A stretch of 64,000 bases of DNA from Escherichia virus KFS-EC: sequence record MH560358; one strand, given 5' to 3'. This document shows positions 2,812 through 30,264 of the stretch, piece after piece. Below the pieces are notes generated by a model. It had not been told where the DNA came from. It ran no database searches and was given only the letters and a program-made list of their open reading frames with translations. Position 1 is the stretch's first letter. The number at the start of each line of letters is the position of its first letter. The position numbers and the translations under genes are program-made.

Positions 2812-4377
2812 ATGTTTAGTAGATTAAAAATGCTTGCGCGTTGGGCTGATTTTGACAACGACAAATACGAAGAACAAATTAAAGATAAAGCAGAGTCTAT
2901 CGCCGCACCTAAAAACAATGATGGTGCTACGGAAGTAGAAATTAATGATAATTTACCTGCTAGCGCGTGGAACTCTCTTACCCAGCAATTTTACAGCACC
3001 GACCAGAAAATCAGCACAACTAAGCAATTAGTTAACACATATCGCGGTTTGATGAATAACCATGAAGTCGAAAACGCTGTACAAAATATCGTTAACGATG
3101 CGATTGTATTTGAAGAAGGTCATGAAGTTGTTTCATTAAATCTTGAGGCGACTGGCTTTAGTGAATCTGTAAAAGAGCGCATTCATGAAGAATTTAAAGA
3201 TCTTTTAAACACTATCCAGTTTGATAGGCGCGGTCAGGATATGTTCCGTCGCTGGTATGTCGATTCGCGTATTTTCTTCCATAAAATCATCGGCAAAAAT
3301 CCAAAAGATGGTATCGTAGAATTACGCCAGCTTGACCCACGTAATCTTGAATACGTTCGAGAGATCATTACAGAAGACACACCGGAAGGTAAAATTTATA
3401 AAGCAACGAAAGAATATTTCATTTACACTGTAGGCAATAGCTCTTATTGCGCAGGTGGTCAAGTATTCTCTCCTAATAGTCGCGTTAAAATCCCGCGTAG
3501 TGCTATTACATACGCTCACAGCGGCTTGATGGATTGTGATGATAAATATATCATTGGTTATTTGCATCGGGCTGTTAAGCCAGCAAACCAGCTTAAATTG
3601 TTGGAAGACGCAATGGTCGTTTATCGTATCACGCGTGCACCGGAACGCCGAGTGTTCTTTATTGATACCGGAAACATGAACAACCGCAAGGCTGCACAGC
3701 ACATGAACTCAGTGGCACAGTCTTTTAAAAACCGCGTTGTTTATGATGCATCGACTGGTAAACTTAAAAACCAGCAAGCAAATCTATCAATGACAGAGGA
3801 CTACTGGTTACAGCGTCGAGATGGTAAAGCAATAACCGACGTTACTACTTTACCCGGTGCATCCGGTATGAGTGATATCGATGATATTCGCTACTTTAAC
3901 CGTAAATTGTATGAAGCGTTGCGTGTACCATTGTCACGCAGTAATCTCTCCGATGCTAATATGGTGATCGGTGGTGACGGTTCAGAAATTACTCGCGATG
4001 AGTTGGAATTTTCGAAATTCATTAGAACTCTGCAATCACAGTTTTCGGAAGTATTGCGCGATCCTCTGAAATATAATCTGATTCTCAAAAATGTAATTAC
4101 GGAAGACGATTGGGATCGTGAAATAAATAATATCAAGGTGGTTTTCCATCGGGACTCTTATTATACAGAAGTTAAAGACGCGGAAATTTTAGAACGTCGA
4201 ATCGGTCTAATCGAACGTATTACACCTTACATTGGTAAATATTTCTCTAACCAGACAGTGATGCGTGACATTCTGAAATATACCGATGACCAGATGGACA
4301 CCGAGAAGAAACAGATCGAAGAAGAAGCGAACGATCCGCGCTTTAAACAAACTCCCGATGAAATAGAGGATTTTTAA
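2812..4377 (+). CDS. 20: Portal vertex protein gp20
   Basis: 521 aa ORF in the gp20 position between gp19 and gp67, size as T4 gp20. Confidence 0.9.
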   Translation: MFSRLKMLARWADFDNDKYEEQIKDKAESIAAPKNNDGATEVEINDNLPASAWNSLTQQFYSTDQKISTTKQLVNTYRGLMNNHEVENAVQNIVNDAIVFEEGHEVVSLNLEATGFSESVKERIHEEFKDLLNTIQFDRRGQDMFRRWYVDSRIFFHKIIGKNPKDGIVELRQLDPRNLEYVREIITEDTPEGKIYKATKEYFIYTVGNSSYCAGGQVFSPNSRVKIPRSAITYAHSGLMDCDDKYIIGYLHRAVKPANQLKLLEDAMVVYRITRAPERRVFFIDTGNMNNRKAAQHMNSVAQSFKNRVVYDASTGKLKNQQANLSMTEDYWLQRRDGKAITDVTTLPGASGMSDIDDIRYFNRKLYEALRVPLSRSNLSDANMVIGGDGSEITRDELEFSKFIRTLQSQFSEVLRDPLKYNLILKNVITEDDWDREINNIKVVFHRDSYYTEVKDAEILERRIGLIERITPYIGKYFSNQTVMRDILKYTDDQMDTEKKQIEEEANDPRFKQTPDEIEDF

Positions 4378-27785: not shown

Positions 27786-27853
27786 TTTATATCCTCTAGT
27801 TGATAACCTATAAACCTATATTTATGAAAACGGGGATTAACGCCCCCTTTTTA

Positions 27854-28066
27854 TTATAATGCACCATCAAGCAATTGCTCTAAGGTGTATCCTGAATAGT
27901 CTTTTTCAATCAGGATATATTTTCCTACTCGTTTAATACAACCACGCATTTCAACGTATTCTGCGTAGTTGATGGTACGAGTTGTTCCATCTTCCAGTAA
28001 TGCAGTACCGATTTCGTTAATGCGGTCATAAGTTACGTCGGTAATGATGATTTCGATGTTAGCCAT
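27854..28066 (-). CDS. Hypothetical protein (70 aa)
   Basis: Start moved to internal ATG (MANIEIIITD) with TAAGGAGT ribosome binding site; the track start lies inside the promoter. Confidence 0.5.
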   Translation of the reverse strand: MANIEIIITDVTYDRINEIGTALLEDGTTRTINYAEYVEMRGCIKRVGKYILIEKDYSGYTLEQLLDGAL

Positions 28067-28102
28067 TTGATACTCCTTAGTAGTTCGTTTCGGTATGTGT
28101 GC

Positions 28103-28131
28103 ATTATAGGGGATCACCGATCCCCTGTCAA
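28103..28131 (-). promoter_or_regulatory. PeSL-type early promoter (TTGACA, GGGGATCggtGATCCCC, TATAAT)
   Basis: Minus strand: -35 TTGACA, 17-nt spacer that is a perfect GC palindrome, -10 TATAAT, then conserved leader ending in a ribosome binding site. Confidence 0.6.
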
Positions 28132-28138
28132 CAACTTT

Positions 28139-28657
28139 TTAGTTATTTTTTAATTGTTCATCTTGCAATAATGCAATCACATGCTGGCGATGTTCTTCCG
28201 ATTGAGGTACACCGAAAAAGTTTGTTTTGTAGAAATACTCTAATCGGTCTTCTCGTGTGCTCTCTTCCATCATGATCGCGGGTAGTCCGAGATTTCGGAA
28301 ACGTCGCTTTTCTGCTGGCGTAAAATCACTGTAATACAACATAGAATCATCATTACAAGCAATGCTAAACTCATCTTTCATAAAGGAGAATATTGCGTTT
28401 AAACGCTGTTTACCGTCCACGATTTCGATCTCATAGCGAGAGCCATCATCAATCTTAGCCATTGCGATAGCACCAACCGGAAAATCATTAATCAGGTTTT
28501 CGATAAACATACGTTTGTTTTCGGTGTCCCATACCAAAGGACGCTGATAATCTGGGTTCATGTTGATATAGCCATCTTCTAACCATGCTTCGTAAACAGA
28601 GATGACAAAGTTTTTAGTATTGGTATAGTAACGGCGTTTAGGCGTTAAACGGTTCAT
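28139..28657 (-). CDS. ParB-like / DUF262-like protein (172 aa)
   Basis: DYQRPLVW and DGKQRL motifs typical of the DUF262 ParB/Srx-fold domain; ATG placed 1 nt after the upstream stop. Confidence 0.55.
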   Translation of the reverse strand: MNRLTPKRRYYTNTKNFVISVYEAWLEDGYINMNPDYQRPLVWDTENKRMFIENLINDFPVGAIAMAKIDDGSRYEIEIVDGKQRLNAIFSFMKDEFSIACNDDSMLYYSDFTPAEKRRFRNLGLPAIMMEESTREDRLEYFYKTNFFGVPQSEEHRQHVIALLQDEQLKNN

Positions 28658-28658
28658 G

Positions 28659-28991
28659 TTATAGTCTCCTGAATGGATCATCACGTAAATCAATATCTTT
28701 TAAGAACTCATCCCATGAATGGCGGATATTGTTCTTAATTCTCCAGATAAGCGCAGGGATTGAACGCTCTCCCATCTGGAAGTATGGATCATATGATCCG
28801 TATGACCAATATGCTACTACAATTCCACAATCAGCGCAATAGTATTCTATTTCACTTGCTGGCGACCAAAGTCCATCAATATGATCGGTGATCTTGCTTT
28901 CGATGTTATGGCTATGACAATCAGGGCAACGGATGCAATGACCTTGTTTATCGTAATTTGACGTTAGAGAATACTTAAACAATCTCATCAT
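28659..28991 (-). CDS. Zinc-ribbon protein (110 aa)
   Basis: CIRCPDCHSH ... YYCADCG, two CxxC pairs; ATGA overlap with the upstream methyltransferase-like gene. Confidence 0.5.
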   Translation of the reverse strand: MMRLFKYSLTSNYDKQGHCIRCPDCHSHNIESKITDHIDGLWSPASEIEYYCADCGIVVAYWSYGSYDPYFQMGERSIPALIWRIKNNIRHSWDEFLKDIDLRDDPFRRL

Positions 28992-29704
28992 GGATCCTTA
29001 TTTGCTTCAAATACTGCCTTTGCGAATCCTCGCGGGGTAAGTGACCTGATAGTCTTTGTTTTCGTTCCTTTCCCGCCTAGCTTAGAATGCTGTTTACTGT
29101 ACCCTTTATTAATCTGCACCGGTTTCTTTTCTGGCATTATAAAGCCTTGTCCGGTCCATAAGCAAGTCTTTTTTGGGTACATATCACGGGCGGCAATATA
29201 CTCAGGAAACGTAGGATGCTTATCATCTTCCGGCAAATAACCGCCATATTCCCACGGATGGAACATGTAATCAGGCTTACGCCACATGCTAGAGATAACG
29301 CTTACAGGATTCTCTATCATGTAGGGAACTCCTAGCCATTCACCCAAATAAGCGGTTATTTTAGCTGCCCGTACATCATGAACTTGAATCAATGGTCCTT
29401 GTTCTAGTTTCTTTCGTTCAAAGTGCGCAGCGCCACTAACAGCTAAATTGGTGCACGGTGGGAATGCAAAGATAATATCCGGTTTCCCCCATTCAAGGTC
29501 CATTGCTCTTTCCAGCCAGTTCAAATCAACCCAGGTGTTTACATAGGTAATGTTTTGATGTTCAAATCGGGTATTATATTTTTTGTATGTACCGTGGTCG
29601 CCATCGTCAGCATTAAAGCAGATCACCTTATGACCCGCTTTAGCCCATTCTAACCCCATTATCCCCGATCCGTCAAAGTTGCAGAATATTAATTTTTGTT
29701 TCAT
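28988..29704 (-). CDS. Cytosine-C5 methyltransferase-fold protein, minimal (238 aa)
   Basis: Motif I FCNFDGSGIMG, motif IV DIIFAFPPCTNLAVSG (PC catalytic dipeptide), motif VI YMIENPVSV (ENV-like), C-terminal TPRGFAKAV (motif IX/X-like); no room for a conventional target-recognition domain. Confidence 0.6.
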   Translation of the reverse strand: MKQKLIFCNFDGSGIMGLEWAKAGHKVICFNADDGDHGTYKKYNTRFEHQNITYVNTWVDLNWLERAMDLEWGKPDIIFAFPPCTNLAVSGAAHFERKKLEQGPLIQVHDVRAAKITAYLGEWLGVPYMIENPVSVISSMWRKPDYMFHPWEYGGYLPEDDKHPTFPEYIAARDMYPKKTCLWTGQGFIMPEKKPVQINKGYSKQHSKLGGKGTKTKTIRSLTPRGFAKAVFEANKDP

Positions 29705-29946
29705 ATACTCCCCTTTAATCCAACACAGATTTTAGAAGGTTCTTTGCCGTGCCACATTAAGTAAAGTCCGTTAATGCGGCCTTGTTTTGTATATGATTCT
29801 TTTCTGATCTTCTTATAGTGTCGTGTTTCCTCAGCCGATTGTTTAGAATACCAATCATAAAGGAAGATGAACAAAGGCCACCCATTAGCGGCCTTAATGC
29901 AGTTATTCAAAAATTCCTTATTGCGTTTAATTAATTTTCTTTTCAC
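29701..29946 (-). CDS. Hypothetical protein (81 aa)
   Basis: Start (possibly GTG) overlaps the upstream stop; basic N-terminus and hydrophobic WPLFIFLYDWY segment. Confidence 0.4.
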   Translation of the reverse strand: MKRKLIKRNKEFLNNCIKAANGWPLFIFLYDWYSKQSAEETRHYKKIRKESYTKQGRINGLYLMWHGKEPSKICVGLKGSI

Positions 29947-30194
29947 GCTGCCCCCATTGGTTTGATAGTAACAGAATCTAAAAGACCTTTGTTAGCCAGT
30001 TCGCGGCAAGTTTTCAGATCCGCAACTTCCCAGCCAGCCGCAATCAGGTTATCGATTAGGCTGTTAGCAACTTCTTCGCTCATGAAAGAGCACTGTTTGC
30101 CGATGGTGTAGCGTACACGCTGTAATTTCAGTTTACGGAAGCCTTTAACGTTCAGGTCTTTAGCGATTTTCTTTGCGGTTTCGATGTTAGCCAT
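29943..30194 (-). CDS. Hypothetical protein (83 aa), first gene of coupled operon
   Basis: ATG with ribosome binding site directly downstream of a PeSL promoter. Confidence 0.5.
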   Translation of the reverse strand: MANIETAKKIAKDLNVKGFRKLKLQRVRYTIGKQCSFMSEEVANSLIDNLIAAGWEVADLKTCRELANKGLLDSVTIKPMGAA

Positions 30195-30234
30195 TGTTTG
30201 ATTCTCCTAAGTGGTATCTCGTCTTGATGGTTGT

Positions 30235-30264
30235 ATTGTAGGGGGAGTTATCCTCCCCTGTCAA
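30235..30264 (-). promoter_or_regulatory. PeSL-type early promoter (TTGACA, GGGGAGGataaCTCCCCC, TACAAT)
   Basis: -35/-10 hexamers bracketing an 18-nt GC palindrome; leader almost identical to that at 31139-31173. Confidence 0.55.

Follow-up and report, generated by a model that had tools for sequence, protein, structure and literature searches.

A predicted early gene chain with a mini DNA cytosine-C5 methyltransferase in the RB49-like phage KFS-EC

We examined a compact group of six open reading frames (ORFs) of Escherichia virus KFS-EC (sequence record MH560358), located at positions 27,854 to 30,264 of a 64,000-nt stretch of DNA that was analyzed as a whole and is referred to below as the window. 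By megablast, the window belongs to Krischvirus, the RB49-like T4-type coliphages, with Shigella phage Sf20 as the best match (98.8% identity). A 2.9-kb region of the locus matched 62 phage records, 55 of them at 95-99% identity over at least 80% of its length; among the matches listed (25 records), all are RB49-like T4-type coliphages, and the three with taxonomy read are Krischvirus. The six ORFs correspond to RB49p190, 189.1, 189, 188, 187, and 185 and lie immediately upstream of the alt ADP-ribosyltransferase gene in the RB49 RefSeq record. The operon is a compact early unit, and its central gene, ORF189, is a real and already annotated mini DNA cytosine-C5 methyltransferase of a recently characterized family. 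The RB49 RefSeq label of RB49p189 is "DNA methyltransferase", other records use "Dcm" or "putative C-5 cytosine DNA methylase", and DUF262 is already noted for ORF187 in the Sf20 and W115 records. The locus is already known: the gene was annotated in a 2003 genome, and the enzyme family has been characterized since 2023. A first-pass annotation, made from the sequence alone, had implied a novelty that is overrated in view of these many annotations and of an experimentally characterized homologue with 55% identity. Our result is thus mainly corrective, in that a supposed new split module is an annotated RB49 operon with a member of a very common phage methyltransferase family.

All six ORFs are on the minus strand at the coordinates that had been reported, and five of them are chained by overlapping or abutting stop and start codons as the first-pass annotation had described. 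As read from the sequence, the stop of ORF190 (29943..30194) and the GTG start of ORF189.1 (29701..29946) share the tetranucleotide GTGA, and the stop of ORF189.1 and the ATG of the methyltransferase gene ORF189 (28988..29704) share ATGA, each with a 4-nt overlap. The methyltransferase stop overlaps the ATG of the zinc-ribbon gene ORF188 (28659..28991) in the same 4-nt manner (ATGA), although the RB49 annotation uses the second ATG, and the TAA of ORF188 is separated by a single C from the ATG of the DUF262 gene ORF187 (28139..28657), giving TAA-C-ATG. A Shine-Dalgarno-like sequence precedes every start. In a 9-kb stretch of the RB49 annotation, gaps of at most 1 nt occur at all four junctions inside the chain compared with 4 of 16 elsewhere, where the other junctions are 45- to 122-bp spacers; the five-gene chain is therefore locally distinctive. 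Most genes in this stretch are single cassettes between such spacers.

Two PeSLs were located where one promoter for the chain and a separate one for the sixth gene had been proposed. PeSLs are composite promoter and stem-loop motifs of phages RB49 and phi1 that mediate the shuffling of ORFan cassettes in hyperplastic regions (Arbiol et al., 2010; PMC2839356). The predicted early promoter of the five-gene chain (30235..30264, minus strand; TTGACAGGGGAGGATAACTCCCCCTACAAT) combines the sigma-70 -35 hexamer TTGACA, a G/C stem-loop in the spacer, and the -10 hexamer TACAAT, with a consensus match of 11/12. The second PeSL, predicted to serve ORF185 (28103..28131, minus strand), matches the consensus at 12/12 and follows the PeSL pattern exactly. 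The window contains three copies of the strict pattern TTGACAGGGG-N-CCCCTANAAT, compared with none in 100 shuffled versions. The locus thus carries the features of a PeSL cassette, namely sigma-70 consensus hexamers, a G/C stem-loop spacer, ORFan flanks, and a position in a hyperplastic region. It resembles the RB49 and phi1 ORFan cassettes (PMC2839356) in that the same composite motif flanks the unit, and it differs from them in gene content, since most cassettes in the region hold one gene each, whereas five tightly coupled genes are found here. In the interpretation that we consider likely, a PeSL-driven early unit in an RB49-type hyperplastic region carries five coupled, evolutionarily independent accessory genes, the third of which encodes an autonomous orphan mini-Dcm C5 methyltransferase.

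The ORF189 methyltransferase

The 238-aa product of ORF189 matched the PHROGs family phrog_757, "DNA methyltransferase", with an E-value of 2e-89, and the cytosine-C5 motifs I, IV, and VI named by the first-pass annotation are present. Motif I, which binds S-adenosylmethionine (AdoMet), reads F10-D-G12-S-G14 (family consensus LFDxTG; in closer relatives, G14 is conserved to at least 90%), motif IV is represented by P83-C84, and motif VI by E131-N132-P133, with Pro in place of the usual Val. In an alignment of 57 diverse family members, C84, E131, and P133 are invariant, as are G91, P150, Y176, K178, T180, W183, P191, and R220, and N132 is at least 90% conserved. The QxRxR motif VIII is missing, and its place appears to be taken by the invariant strand Y176-x-K178-(K)-T180; a superposition of the homologous phage K42 enzyme on DNMT3A puts the Y-x-K-(K)-T strand at the motif VIII-equivalent position (10.1101/2023.08.16.553469).

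Sequence searches of the PDB gave nothing usable, as phmmer with the methyltransferase found nothing and the best matches of the 57-member profile were M.HaeIII (E = 0.75) and DNMT2 (E = 1.2), so that a structure comparison was needed. An AlphaFold2 model based on the 57-member alignment reached a predicted local distance difference test score (pLDDT) of 93.1 and a predicted template modeling score (pTM) of 0.91. Fold searches with this model retrieved the C5-methyltransferase catalytic-domain fold, and the best structural matches were DNA enzymes, with DNMT3A at the top. The first-pass annotation had named membership in a non-DNA methyltransferase family as the outcome that would speak against it; the fold searches led to DNA C5-methyltransferases rather than to RNA or nucleotide methylases. 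The C5 fold, motif I, the Pro-Cys pair at C84, the Glu-Asn-Pro triplet at E131, K178/K179, the RSxTPRGF sequence, and a target-recognition segment of about 35 residues together led us to assign ORF189 to the mini-Dcm C5 enzymes.

Compared with canonical C5-methyltransferases (M.HhaI, M.HaeIII, E. coli Dcm, and DNMT3A/3B), ORF189 appears to have a YxKKT strand instead of the QxRxR of motif VIII, its target-recognition segment measures about 35 aa and not about 80 aa as in M.HhaI, and a cognate endonuclease is absent. The segment is flanked by YPKKTCLWT, the motif VIII-like strand, and by the motif IX-like sequence RSLTPRGF and is equally short in stand-alone homologues; the Krischvirus enzyme therefore has no feature left for a partner to supply. 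"Minimal C5 methyltransferase", as the protein had been called, is an accurate description.

The family is large, with 7,309 homologues in a set of 5.8 billion proteins and 1,150 representatives after clustering at 50%, nearly all of them 210-260 aa long. Phage-wide distributions, here and below, refer to 50,697 phage records, of which 1,519 (about 3%) contain the family. Among the records read or listed are Drexlerviridae (tiwna, KarlJaspers) as well as Escherichia, Klebsiella, and Salmonella phages of about 40-60 kb and 120-150 kb. Among the ten longest family members scanned, one carries an HNH_2 domain and one a weak helical domain, and none has a ParB or DUF262 domain.

The closest characterized relatives are the Drexlerviridae enzymes of phrog_757. 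The KarlJaspers protein bas06_0055 ("Dcm-like C5 cytosine methyltransferase", 711 bp) is 55% identical to ORF189 over the full length (E = 1e-92), and phage K42 is 95.4% identical to KarlJaspers Bas06 (10.1101/2023.08.16.553469). All K42 mutants that escape retron Ec86 disrupt its 711-bp dcm gene; expression of this gene raised 5-methylcytosine (5mC) in multicopy single-stranded DNA (msDNA), as measured by liquid chromatography-mass spectrometry, and was toxic only with Ec86 present (10.1101/2023.08.16.553469). A C82A/E128A/K175A/K176A mutant was inert, and the best structural match of the K42 enzyme was likewise DNMT3A (10.1101/2023.08.16.553469). The four mutated residues align with C84, E131, K178, and K179 of ORF189 through bas06_0055, and the same holds for phage tiwna. 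Based on homology over the whole protein, a size of about 230 aa, and the conservation of these residues, we placed ORF189 in the phage mini-Dcm family. The Drexlerviridae enzymes belong to the same length class (236 aa, compared with 238 aa here); they reside beside a helicase gene in a siphovirus replication module, whereas ORF189 is part of a PeSL cassette region in a T4-type myovirus, and the K42 member was assayed as a trigger of retron Ec86, whereas the Krischvirus copy is known from sequence and model.

Selection was estimated as the ratio of nonsynonymous to synonymous polymorphism (pN/pS) between the window and three Krischvirus genomes (RB49, TB34, and one metagenomic relative). The values, all from small counts, were 0.12-0.16 for the methyltransferase, 0.12-0.18 for the zinc-ribbon protein, and 0.05-0.08 for the DUF262 protein. 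With pN/pS of 0.05-0.18 overall, these three can be regarded as genuine genes under purifying selection.

Distribution of the chain genes

The zinc ribbon reported by the first-pass annotation was confirmed in ORF188 (110 aa; phrog_2993), where the pairs C22-P-x-C25 and C52-x-x-C55 are followed by W-x-Y-G-S-Y-D-P. Pfam zinc-ribbon matches are below threshold, a 5-sequence profile found nothing below E = 0.8 in the PDB, and a single-sequence AlphaFold2 model had a pLDDT of 47.8 and was not used for fold search. Homologues from Nonagvirus, Felixounavirus, a 60-kb Klebsiella phage, and an Autographiviridae phage all retain the four cysteines and W62, Y64, G65, and P69. These homologues adjoin dUTPase, dihydrofolate reductase/thymidylate synthase, or exonuclease genes, and none of them has a methyltransferase or DUF262 gene beside it.

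The other proposed partner, ORF187 (172 aa), is indeed a standalone DUF262 protein with a ParB/Srx-type NTPase domain (Pfam GmrSD_N, E = 5e-20). Its best PADLOC match is Menshen NsnA (E = 3.6e-20), and eight short homologues all keep the motifs YQR..VW, DGKQRL, and NF.GVPQSEEH unchanged. In GmrSD/BrxU, SspE, DndB, and NsnA, DUF262 is accompanied by ParBDB and nuclease domains (PMC12065111). ORF187 shares three DUF262 motifs, including DG(Q/K)QR, with these ParB-DUF262 defense sensors and with PD-T4-2. It differs from them in that it ends at 172 aa and thus departs from the GmrSD/BrxU-type architecture, having no ParBDB DNA-binding domain, no DUF1524/HNH nuclease domain, and no partner ATPase or effector, and in that it belongs to a virulent phage, whereas they are found in defense islands.

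Across the phage records, the five chain genes have five different distributions. A word-indexed homologue search proved too insensitive for the small proteins (7 matches for DUF262 and 1 for the zinc ribbon) and was replaced by tblastn against phage genomes. ORF190 was found in 55 records, all Krischvirus, ORF189.1 in 171 records, including JS98-type, Karamvirus, and T5-like phages, the zinc ribbon in 228 records, including Nonagvirus, Felixounavirus, and an Autographiviridae phage, and the short DUF262 protein in 325 records, including RB43, KP15-type, and Karamvirus phages. An NCBIfam search with seven proteins gave no match beyond noise.

Co-occurrence was assessed at 80 non-Krischvirus viral loci with the methyltransferase, collected with a 15-sequence alignment and inspected with 4 kb of flank each. 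Homologues of ORF190, 189.1, 188, or 187 were found within 4 kb of the methyltransferase at none of the 80 loci, and the sole partner match was a distant ORF185 homologue about 3 kb downstream at one of them (L039). Clustering of the three genes on each side recovered lineage-specific neighbors only (helicase, adenine methyltransferase), and neither a recurrent zinc ribbon nor a conserved neighbor of any kind emerged among the 80 loci. In Erwinia phage pEp_SNUABM_01, about 95 kb separate the methyltransferase gene from a short DUF262 gene, and in RB43 the short DUF262 gene lies beside neither a methyltransferase nor a zinc-ribbon gene. The operon thus appears to be a mosaic of independently mobile accessory genes, in which the zinc-ribbon and DUF262 neighbors would be unrelated traveling companions of the methyltransferase.

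Methylation and possible roles

According to the interpretation favored here, one PeSL would drive early co-transcription of the five translationally coupled genes. The enzyme would flip the target cytosine out of the helix, C84 would attack C6 of the cytosine, and the methyl group of AdoMet would move to C5 without the need of a protein partner. Replicating phage DNA, in which cytosine is unmodified, would be methylated early at a rare motif, possibly CCWGG. Such methylation would weaken the effect of some host restriction enzymes, with the potential triggering of retron Ec86 as the price, and the zinc-ribbon and standalone DUF262 proteins would act separately, probably as host-takeover or counter-defense factors.

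The first-pass annotation had instead read the methyltransferase, the zinc ribbon, and the DUF262 protein as a split ParB-methyltransferase machine, in which a partner supplies DNA targeting and which serves DNA modification or blocks restriction. The three genes lie next to each other, are predicted to form one transcript, and have overlapping stop and start codons, a translational coupling that would fit a protein complex and to that extent tells against independent genes. The tight junctions of the chain (4/4 versus 4/16) are locally unusual, the target-recognition segment of the enzyme is very short, and about 55 Krischvirus genomes retain all three genes together. Nevertheless, we regard the split machine as very improbable. 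The partners are absent from all 80 loci outside Krischvirus, the segment is just as short in stand-alone homologues, one of which is active alone from a plasmid, the DUF262 gene is found by itself in RB43, KP15-type, and Karamvirus phages and the zinc ribbon by itself in Nonagvirus, Felixounavirus, and GAP227, and the methyltransferase and DUF262 genes are widely separated in pEp_SNUABM_01. Moreover, genes with no relation to each other are as a rule joined by overlapping stop and start codons in the RB43 region. The analogy with fusion proteins also failed, since the ParB-methyltransferase fusions that are common in phages consist of a ParBc domain and an N6/N4 amino-methyltransferase. The architecture here combines DUF262 with a C5-class enzyme, and ORF187 gave no ParBc match at E-values up to 1, only GmrSD_N/DUF262.

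Several further observations weigh against an autonomous enzyme that methylates phage DNA. The ORF189 protein matches the canonical family PF00145 only below threshold (13.2 bits versus a cut-off of 22; E = 0.058; residues 10-93 only), and 7 of the 57 family members match it, none above the cut-off. The CCWGG specificity ascribed to the K42 enzyme was assumed by analogy with E. coli Dcm rather than mapped, and its support is limited to mutation of the msDNA site (10.1101/2023.08.16.553469). Published, limited assays of Krischvirus virion DNA detected no modification: RB49 DNA is cut by HpaII and NheI (PMC4041780), and TB34 virion DNA contains no modified nucleoside detectable by high-performance liquid chromatography-mass spectrometry (HPLC-MS; PMC13390438). 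RB49-type DNA has ordinary cytosine, and methylation at the global or dinucleotide level is therefore excluded. In addition, CCWGG is 3.6-fold depleted in the window (21 observed, 75 expected; observed/expected ratio [O/E] 0.28), a depletion that full protection of the site by the enzyme would make superfluous. Finally, E. coli B, on which RB49 is commonly grown (PMC4041780, PMC2839356), naturally harbors retron Ec86.

These data could mean that the Krischvirus copy contributes no useful methylation of packaged DNA, being inactive, restricted to host DNA, directed at a non-DNA substrate (tRNA, as for DNMT2), or engaged in transfer of another group (carboxymethyl). We judge this to be quite improbable, because the catalytic and AdoMet-motif residues are all intact and pN/pS is low, the best structural matches are DNA enzymes, and the 55%-identical K42 enzyme makes 5mC in DNA. 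A methylase with a rare motif would escape HPLC-MS and both restriction enzymes tried; methylation of CCWGG would affect about 0.2% of cytosines, with which the HPLC-MS result is compatible. A DNMT2-like RNA activity or carboxymethyl transfer was also considered as the primary reading and rejected, since higher scores were obtained for DNA enzymes and the homologue produces 5mC.

Other sites in the window are depleted as well, including GAATTC (0 observed, 17 expected; O/E 0.00), CTGCAG (0 observed, 7 expected; O/E 0.00), and GGCC (24 observed, 74 expected; O/E 0.33). In the whole window (1-64000), CCSGG has an O/E of 0.36, and GATC is not depleted (O/E 1.04). The O/E of CCWGG is 0.86 in 629 kb pooled from other mini-Dcm phages. 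A signature of 5mC deamination, in the form of an excess of CTWGG/CCWAG or a deficit of CpG, was not found in the window (O/E 0.56 for CTWGG plus CCWAG and 1.15 for CG). A literature search for methylomes of phages with the mini-Dcm family found nothing relevant. Among the possible roles of the methyltransferase, partial motif-specific self-protection of early-replicating DNA is the most likely, with roughly even confidence on our part. The retron native to E. coli B, Ec86, is the one that the homologous K42 methyltransferase triggers.

A more speculative and, in our estimate, unlikely proposal is that the standalone DUF262 protein is a counter-defense factor that mimics or poisons host ParB-DUF262 sensors (NsnA, PD-T4-2, SspE) and that the co-transcribed small proteins offset the cost of a retron-triggering methylase. 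The counter-defense role is suggested by the retention of three NTP-binding motifs in ORF187 and by its conservation in Krischvirus, Pseudotevenvirus RB43, KP15-type, and Karamvirus phages, outside the T-even group, and an offset of the methylase cost would explain the growth of RB49 on E. coli B. In a less likely variant, the zinc ribbon would modulate the specificity of a methyltransferase that has almost no target-recognition domain. The remaining value of the locus lies in the specificity of such a C5 methyltransferase and in the role of a standalone, nuclease-less DUF262 protein in T4-type phages outside the T-even group; the purifying selection on the enzyme contrasts with the apparently unmodified, site-depleted phage DNA and with the potential triggering of Ec86.

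Cassette variation and flanking features

The first two genes of the chain encode small proteins with different rates of change. ORF190 (83 aa; phrog_14908, E = 5e-59) is an ORFan whose homologues are 97.6-100% identical, with pN/pS of 0-0.07 (small counts). It also has a weak PADLOC match to C-terminal positions 722-785 of RT_UG35, the UG35 defense-associated reverse transcriptase (E = 2.6e-5). ORF189.1, a small basic protein of 81 aa (phrog_7065), is far more variable than ORF190, with about 80-97% amino acid identity within the genus and pN/pS of 0.24-0.73 (small counts), which suggests relaxed or diversifying selection. In the metagenomic Krischvirus relative L005, ORF189.1 is precisely deleted (L005 positions 3774-4020 compared with window positions 29700-29950). 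The 5' end of ORF189.1 (GTGAAAAGAAAATTAAT) is almost the same as that of the methyltransferase gene (ATGAAACAAAAATTAAT), and the deletion spans exactly the interval between the two. In L005, the methyltransferase gene now starts with a GTG that overlaps the stop codon of ORF190, and a different sequence stands in place of the PeSL and the upstream half of ORF190. Judged from these comparisons, ORF189.1 appears to be dispensable and faster-evolving. Within its coding sequence, a terminator-like hairpin was noticed at positions 29874-29895 (9 pairs, AAGGCCGCTAATGGGTGGCCTT followed by a T-rich tail); it may be a chance occurrence, as the region has 4 such sites compared with 2.1 expected.

Downstream of the chain, RB49, TB34, and many other Krischvirus phages carry an extra cassette of a PeSL and ORF186 (a 180-nt ORF) between ORF187 and ORF185, which is absent from the window (28066-28139) and from Sf20, as seen by comparison with locus L001 (3466-3784). 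This presence or absence most probably reflects PeSL-mediated gain or loss of a cassette at the locus. Compared with TB34 (L095) and with window positions 28100-28140, phage SAP (L096, about 1014-1130) has a 79-bp tandem PeSL duplication between ORF187 and ORF186, which yields a spurious 117-nt ORF. SAP and TB34 are a 99.96%-identical Krischvirus pair whose cytosine modification was reported to be completely different (PMC13390438). We considered whether this difference maps to the present locus and rejected the idea, since the sole difference here is the 79-bp PeSL duplication, with no obvious link to modification.

The sixth gene, ORF185 (27854..28066, minus strand; RB49p185), encodes a 70-aa ORFan (phrog_10679, E = 3.5e-42) and has its own predicted promoter and a strong ribosome-binding site. 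The unit is closed before alt by a terminator-like hairpin (27832..27847, minus strand; GGGGGCGTTAATCCCC followed by a T-rich tail), which is annotated as a terminator in TB34.

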